Of a stretch of 64,000 nucleotides of DNA, positions 26,369 through 62,849 are shown in pieces. The notes under the pieces are model-generated. The model ran no database searches. It worked only from the letters and a program-made list of their open reading frames with translations, and had not been told where the DNA came from. This DNA is from Candidatus Woesearchaeota archaeon. Its GTDB lineage: Archaea; Nanobdellota; Nanobdellia; SCGC-AAA011-G17; JACPIM01. The stretch lies in the NCBI GenBank assembly GCA_016188045.1, contig JACPIM010000006.1:26137-90136 (forward strand). The letters run 5' to 3'. Every line of letters begins with the position of its first letter. The stretch's first letter is position 1. The translations under genes and the position numbers were made by a program.

Positions 26369-26941
26369 ATGTTTTATGAAGTTGAAGTTAGGAGCCACAT
26401 TCGTGTTCCACCATCTAAATTTAAGAATGATATTAAAACTTCAATATTAGAAAGCCTAAACAACCAGTTCTCAAATTTTATATCAAAGGATTTGGGTCTT
26501 GTTGTAAGTGTTTCAGAAGTTATTTCAATAGGTGATGGGGTTTTAATACCTGGAGATGGAGCAGCTTATTACGACACAGTATTCAAATTAATTGTTTTTA
26601 AGCCGGAAATTCAAGAAGTAATTAACGGAACAATAACAGAGATAGCAGAATTTGGGGCCTTTATTGATATAGGACCAATAGATGGCATGATTCATATTTC
26701 ACAAACAATGGACGATTTTGTCTCATATAGCAAGGCAGGAGTTTTAACAGGAAAAGAAACAAAAAAGGTTCTAAAAGTAGGGGATAAATGCCGGGCTCGT
26801 ATTATTGCGGTCTCTTACAAAGAACTATTAAACCCAAAAATAGGATTAACAATGAGGCAGCCCTGGCTTGGGAATATTAATTGGATAGACGAGGATATTA
26901 AAAAACAGAAAAAAGAAGAAAAAGAAGAGAAGGAGAAATAA
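26369..26941 (+). CDS. rpoE: DNA-directed RNA polymerase subunit E' (Rpb7 homolog, S1 domain)
   Basis: MFYEVEVRSHIRVPPSKF is an Rpb7-like N-terminus. An S1 domain follows (GTITEIAEFGAFIDIGPIDGMIHIS). Confidence 0.8.
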   Translation: MFYEVEVRSHIRVPPSKFKNDIKTSILESLNNQFSNFISKDLGLVVSVSEVISIGDGVLIPGDGAAYYDTVFKLIVFKPEIQEVINGTITEIAEFGAFIDIGPIDGMIHISQTMDDFVSYSKAGVLTGKETKKVLKVGDKCRARIIAVSYKELLNPKIGLTMRQPWLGNINWIDEDIKKQKKEEKEEKEK

Positions 26942-27036
26942 AAAATAATTATCATTGGAGGTATCAGAATAGCGGTGGGTTGATAAGAATCCAAATAAAA
27001 TGGAATTAGTGGGTTGATAAGGGTTTACCCTTATAA

Positions 27037-27056
27037 CCGTAGGTGTCTATATGGCA
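27037..27056 (+). promoter_or_regulatory. shared 20-nt leader CCGTAGGTGTCTATATGGCA spanning the SD-like AGGTG and the start codon of spt4
   Basis: Identical apart from one base (CCGCAGG...) to the 20-mer at the S27ae start at 27638..27657. Confidence 0.4.
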
Positions 27057-27239
27057 ACAAAAAAAGTTTGCAAAAAATGTAAGTTGTTTGTTACAGGTCC
27101 ACAATGCCCAATTTGTCACGGTAATGAATTTACAGATAATTGGAAAGGAAAGCTAGTTATACTAGACCCAACCAAATCAGAGATAGCTAAAAAAATAGGT
27201 ATAAACGCAAAAGGGGAATATGCTATTAAAGTAAGATAA
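27051..27239 (+). CDS. spt4: transcription elongation factor Spt4 / RNAP subunit E''
   Basis: CKKCKLFVTGPQCPICHG zinc ribbon plus SEIAKKIGINAKGEYAIKV, matching archaeal Spt4. Confidence 0.8.
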   Translation: MATKKVCKKCKLFVTGPQCPICHGNEFTDNWKGKLVILDPTKSEIAKKIGINAKGEYAIKVR

Positions 27240-27543: not shown

Positions 27544-27637
27544 AATGTAATTAATGGATTAATAATGGCTTACCATTATAACCAGAGGTAATTTAAAGGT
27601 AGTTCATAAGAACTAAATAAAAGGGAAGTAATAGAAA

Positions 27638-27657
27638 CCGCAGGTGTCTATATGGCA
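27638..27657 (+). promoter_or_regulatory. shared 20-nt leader CCGCAGGTGTCTATATGGCA at the S27ae start
   Basis: See 27037..27056. Confidence 0.4.
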
Positions 27658-27837
27658 AAGAAAAAAGTTAAAAACAAAAAACCAAGCAAAAAATATTCAA
27701 AATACAGAGTAGAAGGAAATAAATTAATTAGAGGTAAAACTTGCCCCAAATGTGGTGCTTCTTATTTTTTAGCAGAACACAAAAATAGGGTTTACTGCGG
27801 TAATTGTAAGTACACAGAATTTTCTCATAAAAAATAA
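27652..27837 (+). CDS. rps27ae: ribosomal protein S27ae (eS31)
   Basis: KVKNKKPSKKYSKYRVEGNKLIRGKTCPKCGASYFLAEHKNRVYCGNCKYTEF has the S27a zinc ribbon. Confidence 0.8.
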   Translation: MAKKKVKNKKPSKKYSKYRVEGNKLIRGKTCPKCGASYFLAEHKNRVYCGNCKYTEFSHKK

Positions 27838-54440: not shown

Positions 54441-54561
54441 GGTGGATGGCGGAATTTGAATCCGCGATCACAAGCTTTCTGCTTTTTTGGGATCTTAGCA
54501 CTTTTCTTAAAAGGGCTAAAGCCACAGGCTTGTATGTTAGCCAGGCTACACCACATCCACC
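54441..54561 (-). tRNA. tRNA-His (GUG) with genome-encoded G-1 and a 45-nt intron after position 37
   Basis: Hand-folded. G-1, acceptor GTGGATG/CATCCAC, D-arm GTGT-AGCCTGGCTA-ACAT. Anticodon stem CAAGC/GCTTG with loop CTGTGG|intron|A. T-arm GCGGA-TTCAAAT-TCCGC, discriminator C. Intron at 54477..54521. CCA is not encoded. Confidence 0.7.
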
Positions 54562-56699: not shown

Positions 56700-57160
56700 T
56701 TTCTTATTTCATCATTTTTAAGTCTTTCTCTAATCATGGTAGGGTATCTACTTATTATATAATGCTTCAAGCAATGATTGTGCAGCACTAGATACAACTC
56801 CCTATCCTCAAATAAAGGAACAAAAGGAAGAAAAAATGAAAGTTTACCACCACAGTAGAGGTTCCAAGAGCACGAACTTTTAAATCTAAACTGCCATATT
56901 CTGTCCATGCCATAAAAAAGATTCCTTTTTCTTCCATATAACCATTAACGCACCTTTAGCATATAAAAGGTTTGCCATAATTATTAAAAATAGAGGTAGG
57001 TAGGTTATAAGCCACCTTCTGTTGAATCTAACGATTTTCATCATTAATGATTCATTTCAACATCCGACTAAGCGACCTTACCTTTTTTCTAAAGGGGTGT
57101 CTTGCACAAGTTGGGGCTCGCCGTTTCATCCATTTCTACTGAAACATCAGTTTTTTCAAC
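56700..57160 (-). ncRNA. candidate structured non-coding RNA downstream of promoter-like element C
   Basis: GC-richer non-coding block. The only ORF (56693..56908) has an implausible W/C/F-rich composition. Stem-loops such as GTTTC-N13-GAAAC. Fragments faintly resemble RNase P CR-IV/V (GGTAAGGTCGC, ACAGAATATGGCAGTTTAG) but no convincing CR-I was found. Confidence 0.2.
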
Positions 57161-57166
57161 ATCATT

Positions 57167-57205
57167 TTCCGCGAACGCTTTTTTTAAAAGGGTTCTTTAG
57201 CAGTA
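57167..57205 (-). promoter_or_regulatory. conserved promoter-like element copy C (minus-strand TTTTAAAAAAAGCGTTCGCGGAAAATG)
   Basis: TATA-like TTTTAAAAAAA followed by GCGTTCGCGG, as in copies A and B. Confidence 0.4.
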
Positions 57206-57282
57206 GCTGGTCTCGTTTCTGTGCGGTTGCCTTCCATTTCTGAAATCTGATTTGCATCAGACAACTCACTCCAGTAAAGGAG

Positions 57283-57336
57283 TTGATAAGAACTTTTGGT
57301 CAACCAACATAGGAGTTGATAAGAACCTTGGTTCTT
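57283..57336. repeat. two direct GGAGTTGATAAGAAC repeats, the second forming the hairpin ATAAGAACC-tt-GGTTCTTAT
   Basis: GAGTTGATAAGAAC occurs at 57290 and 57322. The perfect 9-bp inverted repeat sits around 57325..57344. Confidence 0.45.
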
Positions 57337-57552
57337 ATTGTGGATGGACTTTCCTCATTTCTTGACTGTTTAAAGTCGAAAAAACGATAGTTGAACACCT
57401 ACCTACTAAAATAATCTATATACTGTAGAATATAAATGTTTTGATTTTAGTGATTAACGTTGAAATAATTGATTTAGGCCTAGTTATGAAACTTTATTTA
57501 CATAGTAAAATCCAGAAAGCCTTATATATAATTTCGCCTTAATAATAACAAA

Positions 57553-58113
57553 ATGGATAGGAGAGTCAGTGAACTATCAATATTAGAGAAATTTGTAAAT
57601 AATTTTGTTTCTATAGTTGAAAAACATTGCAAATATGTGGTTGTTTCTGGTTTTGTTGCAATTGCTCATGGAAGAACAAGAGGAACAGAGGATATTGATA
57701 TAATAATAGAAAGATTAGATGAACTTAAATTTTATAAATTGCATAATGATTTATTGAAGAAAGGATTTGTTTGTGTTCAGGCAGATGATGCAAAAACAGT
57801 TTGTGATTATCTAAAAGATAATTTAAGTGTTAGGTATATTAAAAAAGGCACTTTTGTTCCAGAGATGGAAGTTAAATTTACAAAAGATTCATTAGATGAA
57901 TATCAAATACAGACAAGAAAAAAATTACCTCTTAGTGGCCTGGATATTTATTTTTCTACAATAGAAATGAACATAGCATCTAAAGAGGAATTATTAAAAT
58001 CTGAAAAAGACATGGAAGATGCAAAACATTTAAGAGAAGTTTACTCTGATGAAATAGATGAAAATGAGATTAATAAGATAAAAAAAGAAATTAAAAGATT
58101 AAGATTAAAATGA
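57553..58113 (+). CDS. Pol-beta-superfamily nucleotidyltransferase-like protein
   Basis: VVSGFVAIAHGRTRGTEDIDIII is NTase-like (G[SG]x9-13DxD). First gene of a five-gene overlapping operon. Confidence 0.4.
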   Translation: MDRRVSELSILEKFVNNFVSIVEKHCKYVVVSGFVAIAHGRTRGTEDIDIIIERLDELKFYKLHNDLLKKGFVCVQADDAKTVCDYLKDNLSVRYIKKGTFVPEMEVKFTKDSLDEYQIQTRKKLPLSGLDIYFSTIEMNIASKEELLKSEKDMEDAKHLREVYSDEIDENEINKIKKEIKRLRLK

Positions 58114-58307
58114 GAGATAAAACACATTCAGAACAGATTGTAAGATGGGCAAGATTTGTAAAAAACAATGATATTTCTACTTGGAAACCAATGGTTAAAG
58201 CTTTAACAGATTCACAAATAATTATGGCAAATAGATTTTATTCAAATTTGATAAAAACTGAAAAAGGAAAATTAAAAGCTGAAAAATTGTTAAAAAGGAA
58301 GCTATGA
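58110..58307 (+). CDS. small basic hypothetical protein
   Basis: 65 aa. Overlaps both neighbours (ATGA-type overlaps). Confidence 0.3.
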   Translation: MRDKTHSEQIVRWARFVKNNDISTWKPMVKALTDSQIIMANRFYSNLIKTEKGKLKAEKLLKRKL

Positions 58308-58308
58308 A

Positions 58309-58974
58309 ATGACCCTCAAACTATCACCTTCAAGTATAAACCTAATGCTAGAATGCCCTAGATGCTTCTGGCTTCAAATAGTCAAGAAAATAAAACGCCC
58401 TGAATCTATTTTTCCTTCTCTCCCTTCTGGCATGGATAAGATATTAAAAGAGCATTTTGATAGATTTATGGAAAAAAACGAATTACCTCCCGAAATAAAA
58501 GAGCATGTTAAAGATTGTAAATTATTCAATGATAAGGAAAAACTTAAAATTTGGAGAAATAACTTAAAAGGCATAGAGTATAAAGATGAGGAAAATGATA
58601 TTCTTTTGCATGGTGCAGTTGACAATTTACTAGTAAAAGGCAAAAAATTAATAGTTTTAGACTATAAAACTAGAGGTTTTCCATTAAAAGAAGATACTCA
58701 TGAGCATTATCAGGTTCAGCTTGATTTGTATAATTTTTTATTAAGGAAGAATAATTATGAAACAGAAGATTATAGTTATTTATTGTTTTATTATCCTAAT
58801 AAAGTATTAGAGACCGGAGAAGTTATATTTGATACTAGATTGATTAAGATGAAGACTAGTAGTTTAGATGGAGAAAAGATATTTAAGGAAGCTGTTAGAG
58901 TTATTAAGAATAATATGCCTGAAGCTGGAAAAGAGTGTGGGTTTTGTAGGCGAATAAATGAAAATGGACCATAG
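58309..58974 (+). CDS. Cas4/RecB-like PD-(D/E)xK nuclease with putative Fe-S cysteines
   Basis: N-terminal CPRCFW, core GAVDNLLVKGKKLIVLDYKT (D..D-Y-K), QVQLDLY (QxxxY), C-terminal CGFCRR. This four-Cys arrangement is like Cas4/AddB nucleases. No CRISPR array is nearby. Confidence 0.55.
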   Translation: MTLKLSPSSINLMLECPRCFWLQIVKKIKRPESIFPSLPSGMDKILKEHFDRFMEKNELPPEIKEHVKDCKLFNDKEKLKIWRNNLKGIEYKDEENDILLHGAVDNLLVKGKKLIVLDYKTRGFPLKEDTHEHYQVQLDLYNFLLRKNNYETEDYSYLLFYYPNKVLETGEVIFDTRLIKMKTSSLDGEKIFKEAVRVIKNNMPEAGKECGFCRRINENGP

Positions 58975-59326
58975 TACAAAGATTCAAGAATTAAAAGAAA
59001 AAATAAAACAATTTTGCGAGGATAGAGATTGGGATCAGTATCATGGAGCAAAAGAACTTTCAATAGGGGTAATTACGGAGGCTTCTGAATTATTAGAACA
59101 TTTTAGATTTAAATCAGAAAAAGAAATTGAAGAGTTTTTTAAAGATAATAACAAAAAGGAGAAAATTTCTGAAGAAGTAGCTGACGTATTATATTTCATT
59201 TTAAGATTTGCTCAAAGATATGATATTGATCTAGCAACCGTATTAAATAAAAAAATGGAAAAAAATGAACAAAAATATCCTTTAGAAAAATCAAAAGGGA
59301 GTAATAAAAAATATACAGAACTATGA
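58958..59326 (+). CDS. MazG-like nucleotide pyrophosphohydrolase (small all-alpha NTP-PPase)
   Basis: ITEASELLEHF and EEVADVLYFILRFAQRYDIDL match the MazG EExxE/D motifs. Confidence 0.6.
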   Translation: MKMDHSTKIQELKEKIKQFCEDRDWDQYHGAKELSIGVITEASELLEHFRFKSEKEIEEFFKDNNKKEKISEEVADVLYFILRFAQRYDIDLATVLNKKMEKNEQKYPLEKSKGSNKKYTEL

Positions 59327-61191
59327 GATTATACGAAGAGGCAGTTGAAAAATTCAAAGAAGATGTTTCTCAAAATAAAATAGCAGATAAGATCTCAAAT
59401 CAATATCAAGAATATTACAAAAGAAAGGCAAACCCATCAGAAGTTAGGTCTTGGGTTAATTCTTTAAATTTTGTTAAAAATGTTTTAGAATATGCTCCGA
59501 TAGAAAAAAATAGAATAATAGTTGAATATGAATTACCTTACTCAGAAAAAAGAATAGATGTTATCTTATTTGGAAAAGATGAAGAAGGAAATGATAATAT
59601 AGTTATAATTGAGTTAAAACAATGGTCTAATGAAAATGTCAAAGATTCAGAAAATGAAGGCAACGTTAGAGTAGATTATGGTAGATTTGAACAAGAATCT
59701 CCACATCCTTCGTTACAGATAGAGGGCTATTATTGGCACTTAAAGGATTTCTTAACAGTATTTGAAGAAGAGCCAAAAATAATGTTAAGTGCTTGTGTTT
59801 ATTGTCATAATTACACTAAAGGTGAAAACGAAGTTCTTTATTTACCCAAGTTTAAACCCAATCTAGAAAAATATCCTGTTTTCTCAAAACAAGAAATAAT
59901 CGATTTTGGAAAATATCTAAAAACCAAATTGGCTACAGATCCAGGATTAGAAGTATTCGGAAGATTCAAGAATAGTATTTTTAGACCATCTAAAAAATTA
60001 ATGAATCACGTAGGGGAGATGATTAATCAACAGCAAATCTTCCATTTAATTGATGAGCAAATCACCTCTTATAAAGCAATAATGCAACAAGCAAAGAATT
60101 TAACAAAATCAAAAGAAAAAGCAGTAATAATAATCAAGGGTGGACCTGGTACAGGAAAATCTGTAATTGCCTTAGAAGTTATGGGCGAATTAATGGAAAA
60201 AGGAATAAATGTTGTTCATGCTACAGGATCTTCTGCATTTACAAATACATTAAGAAAAATATTAGGAATAAGGGCAGCTAAACAATTTAAGTTTTTTAAT
60301 AGTTTTTTAAAGCATAAAGAAAACAGCATAGATGTCTTAATTTGTGATGAGGCTCACAGAATCAGAAAGACAAGTGAAAGTATGTACACACCAAAGACGC
60401 TAAGAACAGGAGAACCGCAAATAAATGAGTTAATTAGGTCTGCAAAGTTAAGCATTTTTTTCTTGGATGAAAAACAAGTTGTTAGACCAACAGAAATAGG
60501 AAGTTCAAAATTAATAAAAGAAGCAGCTGAAAGATTTGAAGCTAAAATCTACGAAATGCCAGAATTAAAAACTCAATTTAGGTGTGGTGGTTCTGGTGGT
60601 TACTTAGAAAAAATTGAGCAAATATTAAACATAAGAGAAGAAGGAACAGAATTGGAGTCGGAAGAAGAAATAAAAATGGAACTTAAAATTCTCGGTTCTC
60701 CACACAAGCTTAAAGAAATAATAGATAGAAAAAATAGAGAAAAGAAAAATTGCGCAAGATTAACGGCCGGATTTTGTTGGTCATGGAGTAAACCAAACAA
60801 AGATGGTTCTTTAGTTAATGATGTTAAAATAGGAGATTTTGAAATGCCCTGGGAAAATAAAGAGACCTTCTGGAAGTGGGCCACTGAAGATTCTGGAATG
60901 GAACAAGTCGGCACAGTTTATACTTCACAAGGATTTGAATTTGATTACATAGGGGTAATATTTGGAAATGATTTAGTTTGGAATAAAGAAACAAAAAGTT
61001 GGTATGCTAAACCAGAAAACTCTTATGATAATATGGCAAAAAGGGGAAATGACGAATTTGTAAACCATCTTAAAAATATTTATAGGGTCCTTCTATCAAG
61101 AGCACACAAAGGAGTTTATATTTATTTTATGGATAAAAATACTGAAGAGTATTTTATCAAAAAAGCCAGAGAATTAAAGCTTATTACCTAA
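59323..61191 (+). CDS. DUF2075-like protein: N-terminal PD-(D/E)xK nuclease-like motif plus P-loop NTPase/helicase-like domain
   Basis: RIDVILFG...IVIIELKQW (D...ELK), Walker A IIKGGPGTGKS, Walker B VLICDEAHRI, and a C-terminal YTSQGFEFDYIGVIFG block typical of the DUF2075/Schlafen-like ATPase family. Confidence 0.6.
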   Translation: MRLYEEAVEKFKEDVSQNKIADKISNQYQEYYKRKANPSEVRSWVNSLNFVKNVLEYAPIEKNRIIVEYELPYSEKRIDVILFGKDEEGNDNIVIIELKQWSNENVKDSENEGNVRVDYGRFEQESPHPSLQIEGYYWHLKDFLTVFEEEPKIMLSACVYCHNYTKGENEVLYLPKFKPNLEKYPVFSKQEIIDFGKYLKTKLATDPGLEVFGRFKNSIFRPSKKLMNHVGEMINQQQIFHLIDEQITSYKAIMQQAKNLTKSKEKAVIIIKGGPGTGKSVIALEVMGELMEKGINVVHATGSSAFTNTLRKILGIRAAKQFKFFNSFLKHKENSIDVLICDEAHRIRKTSESMYTPKTLRTGEPQINELIRSAKLSIFFLDEKQVVRPTEIGSSKLIKEAAERFEAKIYEMPELKTQFRCGGSGGYLEKIEQILNIREEGTELESEEEIKMELKILGSPHKLKEIIDRKNREKKNCARLTAGFCWSWSKPNKDGSLVNDVKIGDFEMPWENKETFWKWATEDSGMEQVGTVYTSQGFEFDYIGVIFGNDLVWNKETKSWYAKPENSYDNMAKRGNDEFVNHLKNIYRVLLSRAHKGVYIYFMDKNTEEYFIKKARELKLIT

Positions 61192-61851
61192 CCAATTCCA
61201 GTATCTATTTTTTCCAACGATAACATGATCTAGAACTTGTATACCTAACATTTTCCCAGTGTCAATCATTTTTTTAGTAATCTCAATGTCTTCATTAGAA
61301 GGACTAGGATCTCCACTAGGATGATTATGCACTAAAACAATAGAATTTGCACTTTCTCTAATAGCATAATTAAATATCTCCCTAGGATGTATCAAAGAAG
61401 AATTCAAGCTTCCAACAAATATCTCTTTTTCACCAATAATCTTATTCTTAGTATCTAATAAAACAACCCAAAAAACTTCTTTTTTTAAAGGAACAAACCT
61501 ATCAACAAATCTATTAAACACATCTTTAGGGCTATTAAAATAACCAGTATTAAAACCGCCTTTCTTTAATTTATTAGTTCTTCTGAATAATTCAAATAAA
61601 CTCATAATTTTAGCAGCTTTAAATTCATTCTTAATTTCATTATGTAATTCATTTAAGCTTAAATCAGCTAATCTATGAAAGTTATATTTTTTCAGTAGTT
61701 TATTAGCCAAATCTATTGCACTTTCATCTTTTTCAACTCCAGAACCAAGAATTAAAGCTAATAACTCCGCCTCATTTAATTTTTCAACACCTTCTCTCTT
61801 CAATCTAGTCAAAGGTTGTGTAAAAAAAGGCATTTCTTCTATTTTCATCAT
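61174..61851 (-). CDS. radC: RadC-like JAB/MPN domain protein
   Basis: N-terminal HhH (LLALILGSG) and the JAMM motif HNHPSGDPSPSNEDIEITKKM. Convergent with DUF2075 and overlaps it by 18 nt. Confidence 0.7.
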   Translation of the reverse strand: MMKIEEMPFFTQPLTRLKREGVEKLNEAELLALILGSGVEKDESAIDLANKLLKKYNFHRLADLSLNELHNEIKNEFKAAKIMSLFELFRRTNKLKKGGFNTGYFNSPKDVFNRFVDRFVPLKKEVFWVVLLDTKNKIIGEKEIFVGSLNSSLIHPREIFNYAIRESANSIVLVHNHPSGDPSPSNEDIEITKKMIDTGKMLGIQVLDHVIVGKNRYWNWLGNKL

Positions 61852-62000
61852 TATTTTAATATCAACTCATTTTTAATGTATTTCTAAGAATAAACATATA
61901 TTTTGTAATTTAGTAGTTTCACACTAGTTTATTATGAGTTATGAGTCATAAAAAGATTTAAAAACATAGTTATCCTTAGAATTATCAGGAGAACATAAAA

Positions 62001-62240
62001 ATGCAAGAAGCTCAAATACTTAAAATGTTAACCACGTTTGATTTAGACTTGGAGTGGTTTAAAGAGAACTTAACCTCTTTAAAGGAAAATTATGACCAAA
62101 ATTATGTAGCTATAGAGAATACTGAAGTCATAGTACATGATAAAAATATAGATAACCTAATCACAAAACTAAAACAACTAGGCAAAGACCCATCAAAAGT
62201 ATTCATACAATTTGTTTCTAAAGTTAAATCAATATTTTGA
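62001..62240 (+). CDS. hypothetical small protein
   Basis: 79-aa ORF overlapping the following protease gene. Confidence 0.25.
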   Translation: MQEAQILKMLTTFDLDLEWFKENLTSLKENYDQNYVAIENTEVIVHDKNIDNLITKLKQLGKDPSKVFIQFVSKVKSIF

Positions 62241-62688
62241 TAATCAGATGAGAATTCCTCTAATACTAGTTGATGGAACCCCACGCGTTAATGCTATCCT
62301 GTTTTCCAATCGTTATCATTTTGGTTTAGCAAGGATAACTTTTGTTGTAGATACAGGAAGTAATGCTACTTTTATTGGTGAAGAGGATTTTGCAGGATTA
62401 CAAATTTCAATGGATACGTTGCATAAAGAAGAGGCATTTAAAATGGCGGGATCAAAATATAATCTCTTGCTAGGAAAAGAGGGAACATTATTATTCAAAA
62501 CAAATGAAAATAAAACTACACGTATTGAATTGCCAAATATCCCCATAGCCAAAACAATCAGCAAGAAAGCTTTAGACATAGAAGGTATACCATCCATACT
62601 TGGAACAGATTTTCTAGAAAAAAATAAACTTACTTTATATTTTAATCCAAGTAAGGATCTGATGTATTTGGAAAAAGAAGAATACTAG
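62212..62688 (+). CDS. retropepsin-like (clan AA) aspartic protease
   Basis: ILVDGTPRVNAILFSNRYHFGLARITFVVDTGSNATFIG contains the D-T/S-G-A catalytic motif context. Confidence 0.5.
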   Translation: MFLKLNQYFDNQMRIPLILVDGTPRVNAILFSNRYHFGLARITFVVDTGSNATFIGEEDFAGLQISMDTLHKEEAFKMAGSKYNLLLGKEGTLLFKTNENKTTRIELPNIPIAKTISKKALDIEGIPSILGTDFLEKNKLTLYFNPSKDLMYLEKEEY

Positions 62689-62693
62689 GAAAT

Positions 62694-62725
62694 CATAAGA
62701 ACGTAGTTCTTATCTAATTAAAAAT
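62694..62725. repeat. hairpin ATAAGAAC-gta-GTTCTTAT, the same inverted repeat as at 57325, about 130 nt downstream of the 23S 3' end
   Basis: AATCATAAGAACGTAGTTCTTATCTAATT. Confidence 0.45.
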
Positions 62726-62849
62726 TTATCAACTTTCCAAATAAGGCTGTGTATTTATTTAGAAGAGATTAAAAAAAGATTCATTAGAAAAGATACTGTT
62801 TAGATATTTTAATAAAGTAAAAGCATAGGCAATTAACTCTAAAAGTTTT

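Follow-up and report, generated by a model that had tools for sequence, protein, structure and literature searches.

The window, meaning the whole stretch of 64,000 nucleotides (nt) analyzed here, originates from a Candidatus Woesearchaeota archaeon (contig JACPIM010000006.1), has a G+C content of approximately 30%, and encodes proteins whose homologues bear Nanoarchaeota and Woesearchaeota names. It harbors four copies of a short palindromic module, designated E1. Locus A is located in the 109-nt spacer that separates rpoE' (26369 to 26941) from spt4 (27051 to 27239), a diverged copy occupies the S24e-S27ae spacer, locus B lies within the RNase P RNA gene at 57.3 kb, and locus C lies at 62.7 kb, beyond the 23S ribosomal RNA (rRNA). 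Read on its own strand, E1 is a palindrome of approximately 27 nt that consists of a left arm (AUAAG and a variable stem), a loop, a right arm (the stem complement and CUUAU), and a CAACYC tail. A second copy of the right arm is often found 15 to 35 nt downstream of the module. At loci A and B, the minus strand reads as a hairpin, CUUAUCAACYCC, approximately 18 nt, and (U)UCUUAUCAACYCC. The copies and associated features are as follows.

26974 to 26989, minus strand: R2 (second right-arm copy plus tail) belonging to copy A, TTCTTATCAACCCACC; the first right arm is 34 nt away
27009 to 27034, minus strand: full module copy A, ATAAGGGT-aa-ACCCTTAT-CAACCCAC; in the rpoE'-spt4 spacer, antisense to the operon
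27556 to 27583, minus strand: diverged S27ae-leader copy, plus strand GGATTA-ATAATGG-ctta-CCATTAT-AACC, of which ATAATGG-ctta-CCATTAT-AACC spans 27562 to 27583
27601 to 27614, minus strand: S27ae-leader half copy, plus strand AGTTCATAAGAACT; orthologues GGGAGTTCATAAGAACC (L001) and GGGAGTTGATAAGAACC (L006)
56996 to 57406, minus strand: archaeal RNase P RNA gene (Rfam RF00373, 110.4 bits, full length), which contains copy B as well as another module, E2
57169 to 57192, minus strand: E2 module, CCCUUUUAAAAAAAGCGUUCGCGG; an insertion into the RNase P RNA, in its P12 region
57279 to 57293, minus strand: R2 in the RNase P RNA, GUUCUUAUCAACUCC; within a 33-nt insertion missing from the relatives L089 and L091
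57312 to 57338, minus strand: full module copy B, AUAAGAACC-aa-GGUUCUUAU-CAACUCC; in the RNase P RNA, sense, between P5 (CACA) and P7 (AGUUG)
62695 to 62713, plus strand: hairpin of module copy C, ATAAGAAC-gta-GTTCTTAT; tail degenerate (CTAA for CAAC)
62725 to 62738, plus strand: R2-like segment of copy C, TTTATCAACTTTCC

The first-pass annotation of this DNA had described a GTTGATAAG motif and an ATAAG-N-CTTAT hairpin that recurred at three loci. The strings and hairpins that it named were found in place or within a few bases, and the recurrence was borne out, with the S24e-S27ae spacer added as a fourth related locus. Motif and hairpin had been treated as separate features; both are present, but the hairpin and CUUAUCAACYC layout shared by loci A and B indicates that they are one module seen from the opposite strand, the second GTTGATAAG being an extra copy of the hairpin right arm plus tail (R2). 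The setting of the 57.3 kb copy inside the RNase P RNA gene and of the 62.7 kb copy beyond the 23S rRNA is likewise additional to that annotation. Perfect hairpins were present at 27017 to 27034 (ATAAGGGT-tt-ACCCTTAT), 57319 to 57338 (ATAAGAACC-tt-GGTTCTTAT), and 62695 to 62713 (ATAAGAAC-gta-GTTCTTAT). When compared with the frequency expected of AT-rich sequence, as the annotation had proposed, GTTGATAAG was in excess (four matches vs. 0.77 expected, starting at 26979, 27013, 57282, and 57315, all on the plus strand), and only 1 of 100 shuffles gave at least four matches. The loose pattern ATAAG-N6-14-CTTAT, on the other hand, was not enriched on its own (6 vs. 2.7 expected), and the total of short perfect hairpins in the window (64) was close to the Markov expectation (71 ± 12). 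The signal therefore resides in one specific family rather than in hairpins generally.

Covariation and distribution in DPANN archaea

Metagenome contigs were scanned with the window-derived pattern ATAAGRRYN{2,6}RYYCTTATCAACYY, in which complementarity was not forced, and at least 120 stretches were retrieved from contigs with a G+C content of 26–54%. Contig stretches of relatives and related archaea that were compared with the window are referred to by L-numbers. Among the matches listed, many contigs came from the same groundwater studies as the close relatives of the window, and all three inner pairs were Watson-Crick in 89 of 123. The distinct variants listed gave a similar picture, with all three variable inner pairs being Watson-Crick in 33 of 63 (1/8 expected, p = 3e-14); the fourth pair, which the pattern leaves unconstrained, was Watson-Crick in 14 of 21, compared to six expected. 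A curated alignment was built with N-padded loops, since MAFFT on the raw variants mis-registered the left arm. In this alignment, 93.4% of cells paired, compared to approximately 40% with slid partners, and 55 double-sided changes were counted vs. 24.8 ± 6.8 in shuffles (0 of 500 reached the observed value), although its copies were drawn mostly from well-paired ones, and the unbiased figures are therefore the distinct-variant counts (33/63 and 14/21). Swaps between GC and AU were observed at three consecutive pairs. As a control, the same pattern was applied to 2.9 million viral contigs and yielded 13 apparently coding matches, of which one was complementary, as expected by chance; these chance, coding matches were also all that the viral contigs offered as an autonomous partner or one bearing an attachment (att) site. 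The compensatory arm changes that the annotation had noted at its three loci thus extend well beyond the window, and the comparison supports the hairpin as a selected structure.

Sequence identity places copies A and B of the window within this family. The 25-mer of copy A (ATAAGGGTAAACCCTTATCAACCCA) is identical to copies in L143 (an intron in a T-loop of a transfer RNA, tRNA), L191, and L213, and the 27-mer of copy B is identical to copies at 12 or more loci, including tRNA introns in L116, L123, and L132. Sublineages can be recognized by stem plus tail (GAACC..CAACUCC, GGAU..CAACCUG, and GGGY..CAACCC), each of which occurs in several contexts. Among the 89 copies listed, 26 (29%) had an ARAGORN tRNA within 150 nt, compared to 0.4% of control positions, and 46 (52%) had a T-arm hallmark within the same distance, compared to 4.9% of control positions. 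Copies in messenger RNA (mRNA) leaders were found in both orientations (L107, L126, and L166). No recurrent neighboring protein family was detected within 2 kb of the module copies among the matches listed. E1 is read here as a family of short, non-autonomous, dispersed elements in DPANN (Nanoarchaeota/Woesearchaeota-type) archaea.

In tRNA genes of other DPANN contigs, the module lies at the 5' end of predicted bulge-helix-bulge (BHB) introns in the T-loop (59/60), the D-loop, or the anticodon arm, and the intragenic copies are in tRNA-sense orientation. Applying ARAGORN after brute-force deletion mixed two classes of copies, which were then inspected separately. The copies in related tRNA genes show a 4-bp central helix between two 3-nt bulges, and their removal in silico restores a cloverleaf. 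Those in the anticodon arm form strict hBHBh' motifs, e.g., CACU ug/a ...E1... AGUG aa/g. In the T-loop copies, the module starts right after UUCRAnn, the T-stem serves as the outer helix, and the T-loop UUCR pairs with an intronic YGAA as the central helix, which places the intron at 59/60; the H5:H3 pairs covary, with UUCA:UGAA in five cases and UUCG:CGAA in four. ARAGORN recognized none of 16 such genes in raw form and 12 of the 16 after in-silico splicing. Identical cores were found in tRNAs of several ARAGORN isotypes, including Ser, Gln, and Leu, at differing positions. Inspection indicated a right-arm-like segment beside the 3' splice site, so that the left arm can pair either locally or distally, the distal pairing closing the BHB inner helix. 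This choice between local and distal pairing probably explains the R1/R2 architecture.

With the T-loop insertion removed in silico, ARAGORN called a tRNA-Trp(CCA) in L139 (minus strand, 1639) and a tRNA-Val(GAC) in L182 (plus strand, 6831), both of which are tentative and depend on a second long intron. Trp and Val are the two isotypes that have been reported as "missing" from many complete Nanobdellota genomes.

Copies located downstream of tRNA genes are in the opposite orientation and have a distinct layout, in which a complete tRNA is followed by a T-run, a second hairpin, RGGTTGATAAG-hairpin-CTTAT, GTGG, and a direct repeat that extends from the tRNA T-loop to the 3' end. The repeat of the gene 3' end measures 12–30 nt. 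These inserts of approximately 60–100 nt lie just past the terminator T-run in L104, L095, L172, L180, L162, L189, L204, L155, L167, and L094; the same layout was identified at the 3' end of the 5S rRNA gene in L118 (722 to 900). Tandem units were also present, namely two identical ones of 88 nt in L180 and two diverged ones in L094. The layout resembles a miniature att-flanked integration without a recombinase. The second hairpin of the downstream inserts (e.g., L104, L204, L098, and L155) is symmetric, stem-GA-NN-(3-nt loop)-NN-GA-stem, and its NN pairs covary (GC/GC, AU/AU, and AC/GU). This pattern suggests an RNA, in tRNA-sense orientation, that contains tandem sheared G-A pairs.

These observations are best explained by E1 being a dispersed family of non-autonomous intron-core repeats whose window copies are tolerated, unspliced insertions, a reading to which we assign a probability of roughly 0.7. 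The element would spread at the DNA level into stable-RNA genes and spacers. In tRNAs, the BHB inner helix could form between its left arm and the distal right-arm copy, and the splicing endonuclease and ligase of the host would then excise the insertion and render it harmless. The four window copies, which have no BHB, would be tolerated without splicing, as an RNA expansion segment and as hairpins in untranslated regions and a trailer, rather than serving as dedicated regulatory sites. These copies are probably neutral, and their biological consequence is probably modest.

Several points weigh against this explanation. No tight BHB was found beyond the chance rate in window copies A, S27, B, and C, and intron character is therefore displayed only by the copies of other genomes; moreover, the generic tight-BHB test is a weak one, with 47 of 78 copies positive vs. 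33 of 78 with shuffled flanks. Mobility is deduced from the distribution, the insertion polymorphism, and the identical cores in different contexts. Among the matches listed, the G-U and A-C exceptions are balanced between strands (12 vs. 15), so that selection may act on either strand and on either the RNA or the DNA. The scan pattern was itself taken from the window, and its matches are a biased sample for context proportions. Finally, the S27ae-leader copy is conserved among relatives, with a right arm in L006 that overlaps a Shine-Dalgarno sequence; a local function is thus conceivable.

Copies in the RNase P RNA, the operon leaders, and the rRNA trailer

Relative to the Rfam consensus, a 73-nt stretch at the module in the RNase P RNA is unaligned. 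Inspection showed that the invariant AGUUG just downstream pairs with CAACU of the 3' half, which places the module between P5 and P7; the fold of minimum free energy has the left arm paired with R2. Both L089 and L091, whose NAC protein is 94% identical to that of the window, contain a single copy, ACA-AUAAGrACC-aa-GGUUCUUAU-CAACUCC, and compared to these the window has 33 extra nt, which create R2. L090 encodes a NAC protein identical to that of L089, yet it carries an unrelated insert at the module position. Copy B was also found at the same RNase P RNA position in relatives with different neighbor genes and no rRNA nearby. Another RNase P RNA copy occurs in L211, and in L135 a second site in the RNase P RNA holds the module. 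The orientation in the RNase P RNA is that of the tRNA introns.

The E2 module (CCCUUUUwAAAAAAAGCGUUsGCGGAAAA; also AACCCUUUUUGRAAAAAAGCGUURRCGGAAAA) lies in different RNase P RNA helices in the window and in near-identical relatives, being absent from the P12 site of the latter, which carry it in another helix. Its positions include 7093 in L089 and 3619, 3650, and 3827 in L090. It was also identified in L126, in L141, where a T-loop BHB intron has it as core, in L120, where it is a D-loop insertion, and in L175, where it stands directly 5' of E1. On either side of the L120 copy, 14–15 nt of the E1 right arm plus tail are present as a direct repeat. Right-arm duplications of approximately 14–15 nt, seen in both the window and L120, are no more than suggestive of a target duplication.

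The window also contains a tRNA-His(GUG) gene (54441 to 54560, minus strand) with an intron of approximately 48 nt at the canonical position 37/38 and a textbook BHB, CAAGC CUGU gg/c ... GCAG aa/a GCUUG. Neither ARAGORN nor the whole-window Rfam gathering scan detected it; a local scan scored it at 46.6 bits. Its intron core, CCCUUUUAAGAAAAGUGCUAAG, resembles E2. The BHB geometry used in this work was validated on this intron.

Copy B, which is in intron sense and varies between near-identical strains, forms an RNase P RNA expansion segment under the tolerated-insertion reading. Alternatively, copy B and the P12 insertion of E2 could be genuine introns, cut by the tRNA splicing endonuclease and missing from the mature ribozyme. 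Such introns would agree with the shared orientation, with the role of both modules as intron cores elsewhere, with insertions that differ between strains with identical neighbor proteins, and with the occupied second site in L135; the archaeal endonuclease, furthermore, cuts BHB motifs in any RNA (PMC5829648). However, no BHB brackets the insertion. Under relaxed rules, chance hits abound in the RNase P RNA, as BHB-like motifs of this kind are common in AT-rich sequence, and all of the candidates would delete the conserved CR-I or P7-P9 regions. Splicing of the window RNase P RNA is therefore considered unlikely.

The leader copies have a different history. The closest relative (L001 to L004; RpoE' 94% identical) has an rpoE'-spt4 spacer of 20 nt without the element, and the 109-nt spacer of the window therefore marks locus A as a lineage-specific insertion. 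The spt4 copy and the translation-start region that follows it (AACCGTAGGTGTCTATATGGCAA) match the S27ae leader and not the ancestral spt4 leader, which suggests that the insert is an ectopic duplicate of the S27ae leader. Thus, the copy upstream of spt4 is best read as a recent, lineage-specific duplicate of the S27ae-leader copy, which is itself a long-standing resident. In L001, the S27ae leader contains GGGTTGATAAGGGTTTACCATTATAAC followed by GGGAGTTCATAAGAACC at the orthologous place, and the module is also present in the S27ae leaders of L009, L006, L107, and L126. The L006 leader reads GGGAGTTGATAAGAACC-gta-GGTGCTTAT and shares 16 identical nt with locus B on the plus strand (GGAGTTGATAAGAACC, the repeat at the RNase P locus). 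Both leaders of L009 harbor the element, in two copies that are closer to each other than to those of the window. Within operon spacers, the motif is confined to relatives with an RpoE' identity of at least 80%; at identities of 73% or less, the leaders are short and unrelated. In the window, spt4 and S27ae have a near-identical translation-start region, AACCGyAGGTGTCTATATGGCAA (27032 to 27062 and 27633 to 27663, respectively), and similar first codons. The shared start regions would fit gene conversion between both leaders.

The hairpin could instead be a cis-acting RNA element within the transcripts of the operon and the rRNA, such as a protein-binding site, a processing or stability signal, or a translational operator, that is selected in place in the 23S trailer and in the leaders of spt4 and S27ae. 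This would account for the retention of the S27ae-leader copy in all close relatives, for a G-U pair in one L009 copy that is valid on the mRNA strand only, for the GGTG Shine-Dalgarno sequence within the L006 right arm, and for the orientation of GGGUUGAUAAG, which agrees with local transcription at three of the four window loci. In contrast, the module is reversed relative to transcription in the RNase P RNA, leader copies elsewhere (e.g., L166) occur in both orientations, spt4 of the closest relative is not preceded by the element, more distant relatives have unrelated short leaders, and identical cores form part of tRNA introns in other genomes. Nor is there a terminator-like site (a hairpin plus T-run) at any of the window loci, where the hairpins are followed by AACCG, TGTGG, or CTAAT; the L009 copies do have T-runs. 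The terminator role envisaged by the annotation is also at odds with the presence of the module inside tRNA and RNase P RNA genes. Overall, an element selected in place is rather improbable.

Extra small genes were observed in the rpoE'-spt4-S24e operon of relatives. L006 (4602 to 5343) and L007 contain a DUF3850 gene between rpoE' and spt4 and an open reading frame (ORF) of 96 amino acids after spt4, and L009 (2028 to 2369) has an ORF of 113 amino acids in the same operon. This operon therefore appears to be an insertion hot spot of the clade. The close relative L005 (1 to 2507) also carries an intein in the DNA gyrase B gene, as indicated by a precomputed Pfam Intein_splicing match.

Copy C starts 6 nt past the stop codon of an ORF (62212 to 62688) and lies approximately 130 nt beyond the 3' end of the minus-strand 23S rRNA, on the opposite strand. 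A search for a duplication of the 23S 3' end after locus C gave only a weak 10/15 resemblance within a coding end. Between copies B and C, a block that resembles a defense island (57553 to 62688) adjoins the RNase P RNA and encodes a PD-(D/E)XK nuclease, a MazG-like protein, a Schlafen-type helicase with a NERD domain, RadC, and a DUF5678/retropepsin-like pair; the corresponding place in relatives is occupied by nucleotidyltransferase pairs and toxin-antitoxin genes. The annotation had proposed that the 57.3 and 62.7 kb copies bracket this block, and they might accordingly represent att sites or terminal repeats at either end of a mobile genomic island, given that they are inverted, flank defense-like genes, and have counterparts beside duplicated tRNA and 5S 3' ends, att-like, in related contigs. 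However, the left copy is internal to the RNase P RNA and is present in relatives with other neighbors, no integrase, transposase, or other recombinase was found among the genes between B and C, no flanking direct repeat was found at locus C, and the polarity of the two copies relative to the block interior is opposite to that of the insertions at tRNA and 5S 3' ends. The border assignment is thus not sustained, and island ends are highly improbable. A chance effect of AT-rich sequence, with which the loose ATAAG-N-CTTAT and overall hairpin counts alone would be compatible, is virtually eliminated by the excess of GTTGATAAG, by the 25- to 27-nt identities to copies in unrelated contexts, and by covariation statistics that are strong in the metagenomes and at chance level in the viral control.

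Several other identities were considered and rejected. The repeats do not form a clustered regularly interspaced short palindromic repeat (CRISPR) array, as they are merely pairs 33–34 nt apart inside an RNA gene and an operon spacer. A box C/D small RNA or kink-turn was rejected by inspection because UUGAUAA occurs without a second GA and without CUGA at the expected distance, and no Rfam match was obtained. Reading TTGATAAG or CTTATAA as a promoter (B recognition element and TATA box) is incompatible with the distances to the start codons; furthermore, both genes have Shine-Dalgarno leaders, and one copy lies in an RNA gene. Tandem stop codons (TGATAA) hold only for S24e in L009. Integron attC sites, origin-recognition boxes, and dif/Xer sites gave no match in sequence or context, as judged by inspection. 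The RNase P RNA could form approximately 14–16 bp of antisense pairing with the leaders of spt4 and S27ae, which is indistinguishable from the homology of inverted copies.

Relation to known systems and significance

Archaeal BHB introns occur in tRNA, rRNA, and a few mRNAs, and are substrates of the splicing endonuclease EndA. They are defined by structure, whereas here a conserved sequence module accompanies them and also exists without a BHB. The closest known system is that of the transposed tRNA introns of Thermoproteales, in which highly similar introns are found in different tRNAs and at different positions and are removed by way of BHB motifs (Fujishima et al., 2010, as summarized in PMC4090602). 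According to the same summary, "intron transposition" was inferred in this one crenarchaeal order, with DNA-level spread inferred and its mechanism unknown (PMC4090602). The E1 family differs in that it belongs to another superphylum, DPANN, and its defining feature is a covarying palindromic core that combines an invariant AUAAG/CUUAU base with a CAACYC tail. It also extends outside tRNAs, to two RNase P RNA sites, to leaders in both orientations, and to positions downstream of tRNA and 5S rRNA genes with a duplicated 3' end. The window copies share the cores, but lie outside tRNAs and without a BHB.

Miniature inverted-repeat transposable elements (MITEs) and repetitive extragenic palindromic (REP) sequences are likewise short, non-coding, palindromic, multi-copy, strain-polymorphic, and devoid of genes. 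Unlike MITEs, E1 has an internal palindrome, no terminal inverted repeats, and flanking direct repeats that vary from 12 to 30 nt rather than a target duplication of fixed size. No autonomous relative or RAYT-like gene was found within 2 kb of the copies or in the window block, and E1 strongly prefers stable-RNA genes instead of being purely extragenic. The downstream layout of a complete tRNA, an insert, and a repeat from the T-loop to the 3' end, sometimes with tandem accretion, is similar to tRNA integration of the pNOB8/SSV type (the tRNA disruption model, PMC3293823). In contrast to the latter, the insert is only approximately 60–100 nt and non-coding, no recombinase gene is associated with it, and at least eight tRNA species and a 5S rRNA gene are involved. 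A full-text literature search, with most subscription journals outside its coverage, retrieved no account of the conserved core, its occurrence in RNase P RNA, or the insertions accompanied by a duplicated gene 3' end. The E1 family is thus apparently undescribed so far, and its novelty is provisional owing to the limited coverage of subscription journals.

These findings bear on how archaeal tRNA introns arise and spread, for which the E1 core offers a recognizable tracer across many DPANN genomes. Filled and empty sites between near-identical strains, together with inserts flanked by target duplications, are the type of data needed to reconstruct an insertion mechanism. In DPANN lineages, numerous tRNA genes are known to be disrupted and the predicted tRNA sets to be incomplete (PMC5829648; bioRxiv 10.64898/2026.05.13.725050), and tRNAs that are interrupted in the T-loop and invisible to ARAGORN until spliced in silico bear on these incomplete DPANN and Nanobdellota sets. 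A bolder and doubtful proposal is that mobile mini-introns, built on two or more cores including E1 and E2, occur throughout the superphylum in every class of DPANN stable-RNA gene (tRNA, RNase P RNA, and the 5S/23S flanks), that the duplications of 3' segments up to the U-run record an RNA-mediated or 3'-end-templated insertion, that some RNase P RNA copies are spliced, and that the "missing" Nanobdellota tRNAs are multiply interrupted genes. If true, this would provide the first mechanistic handle on the movement of archaeal BHB introns.

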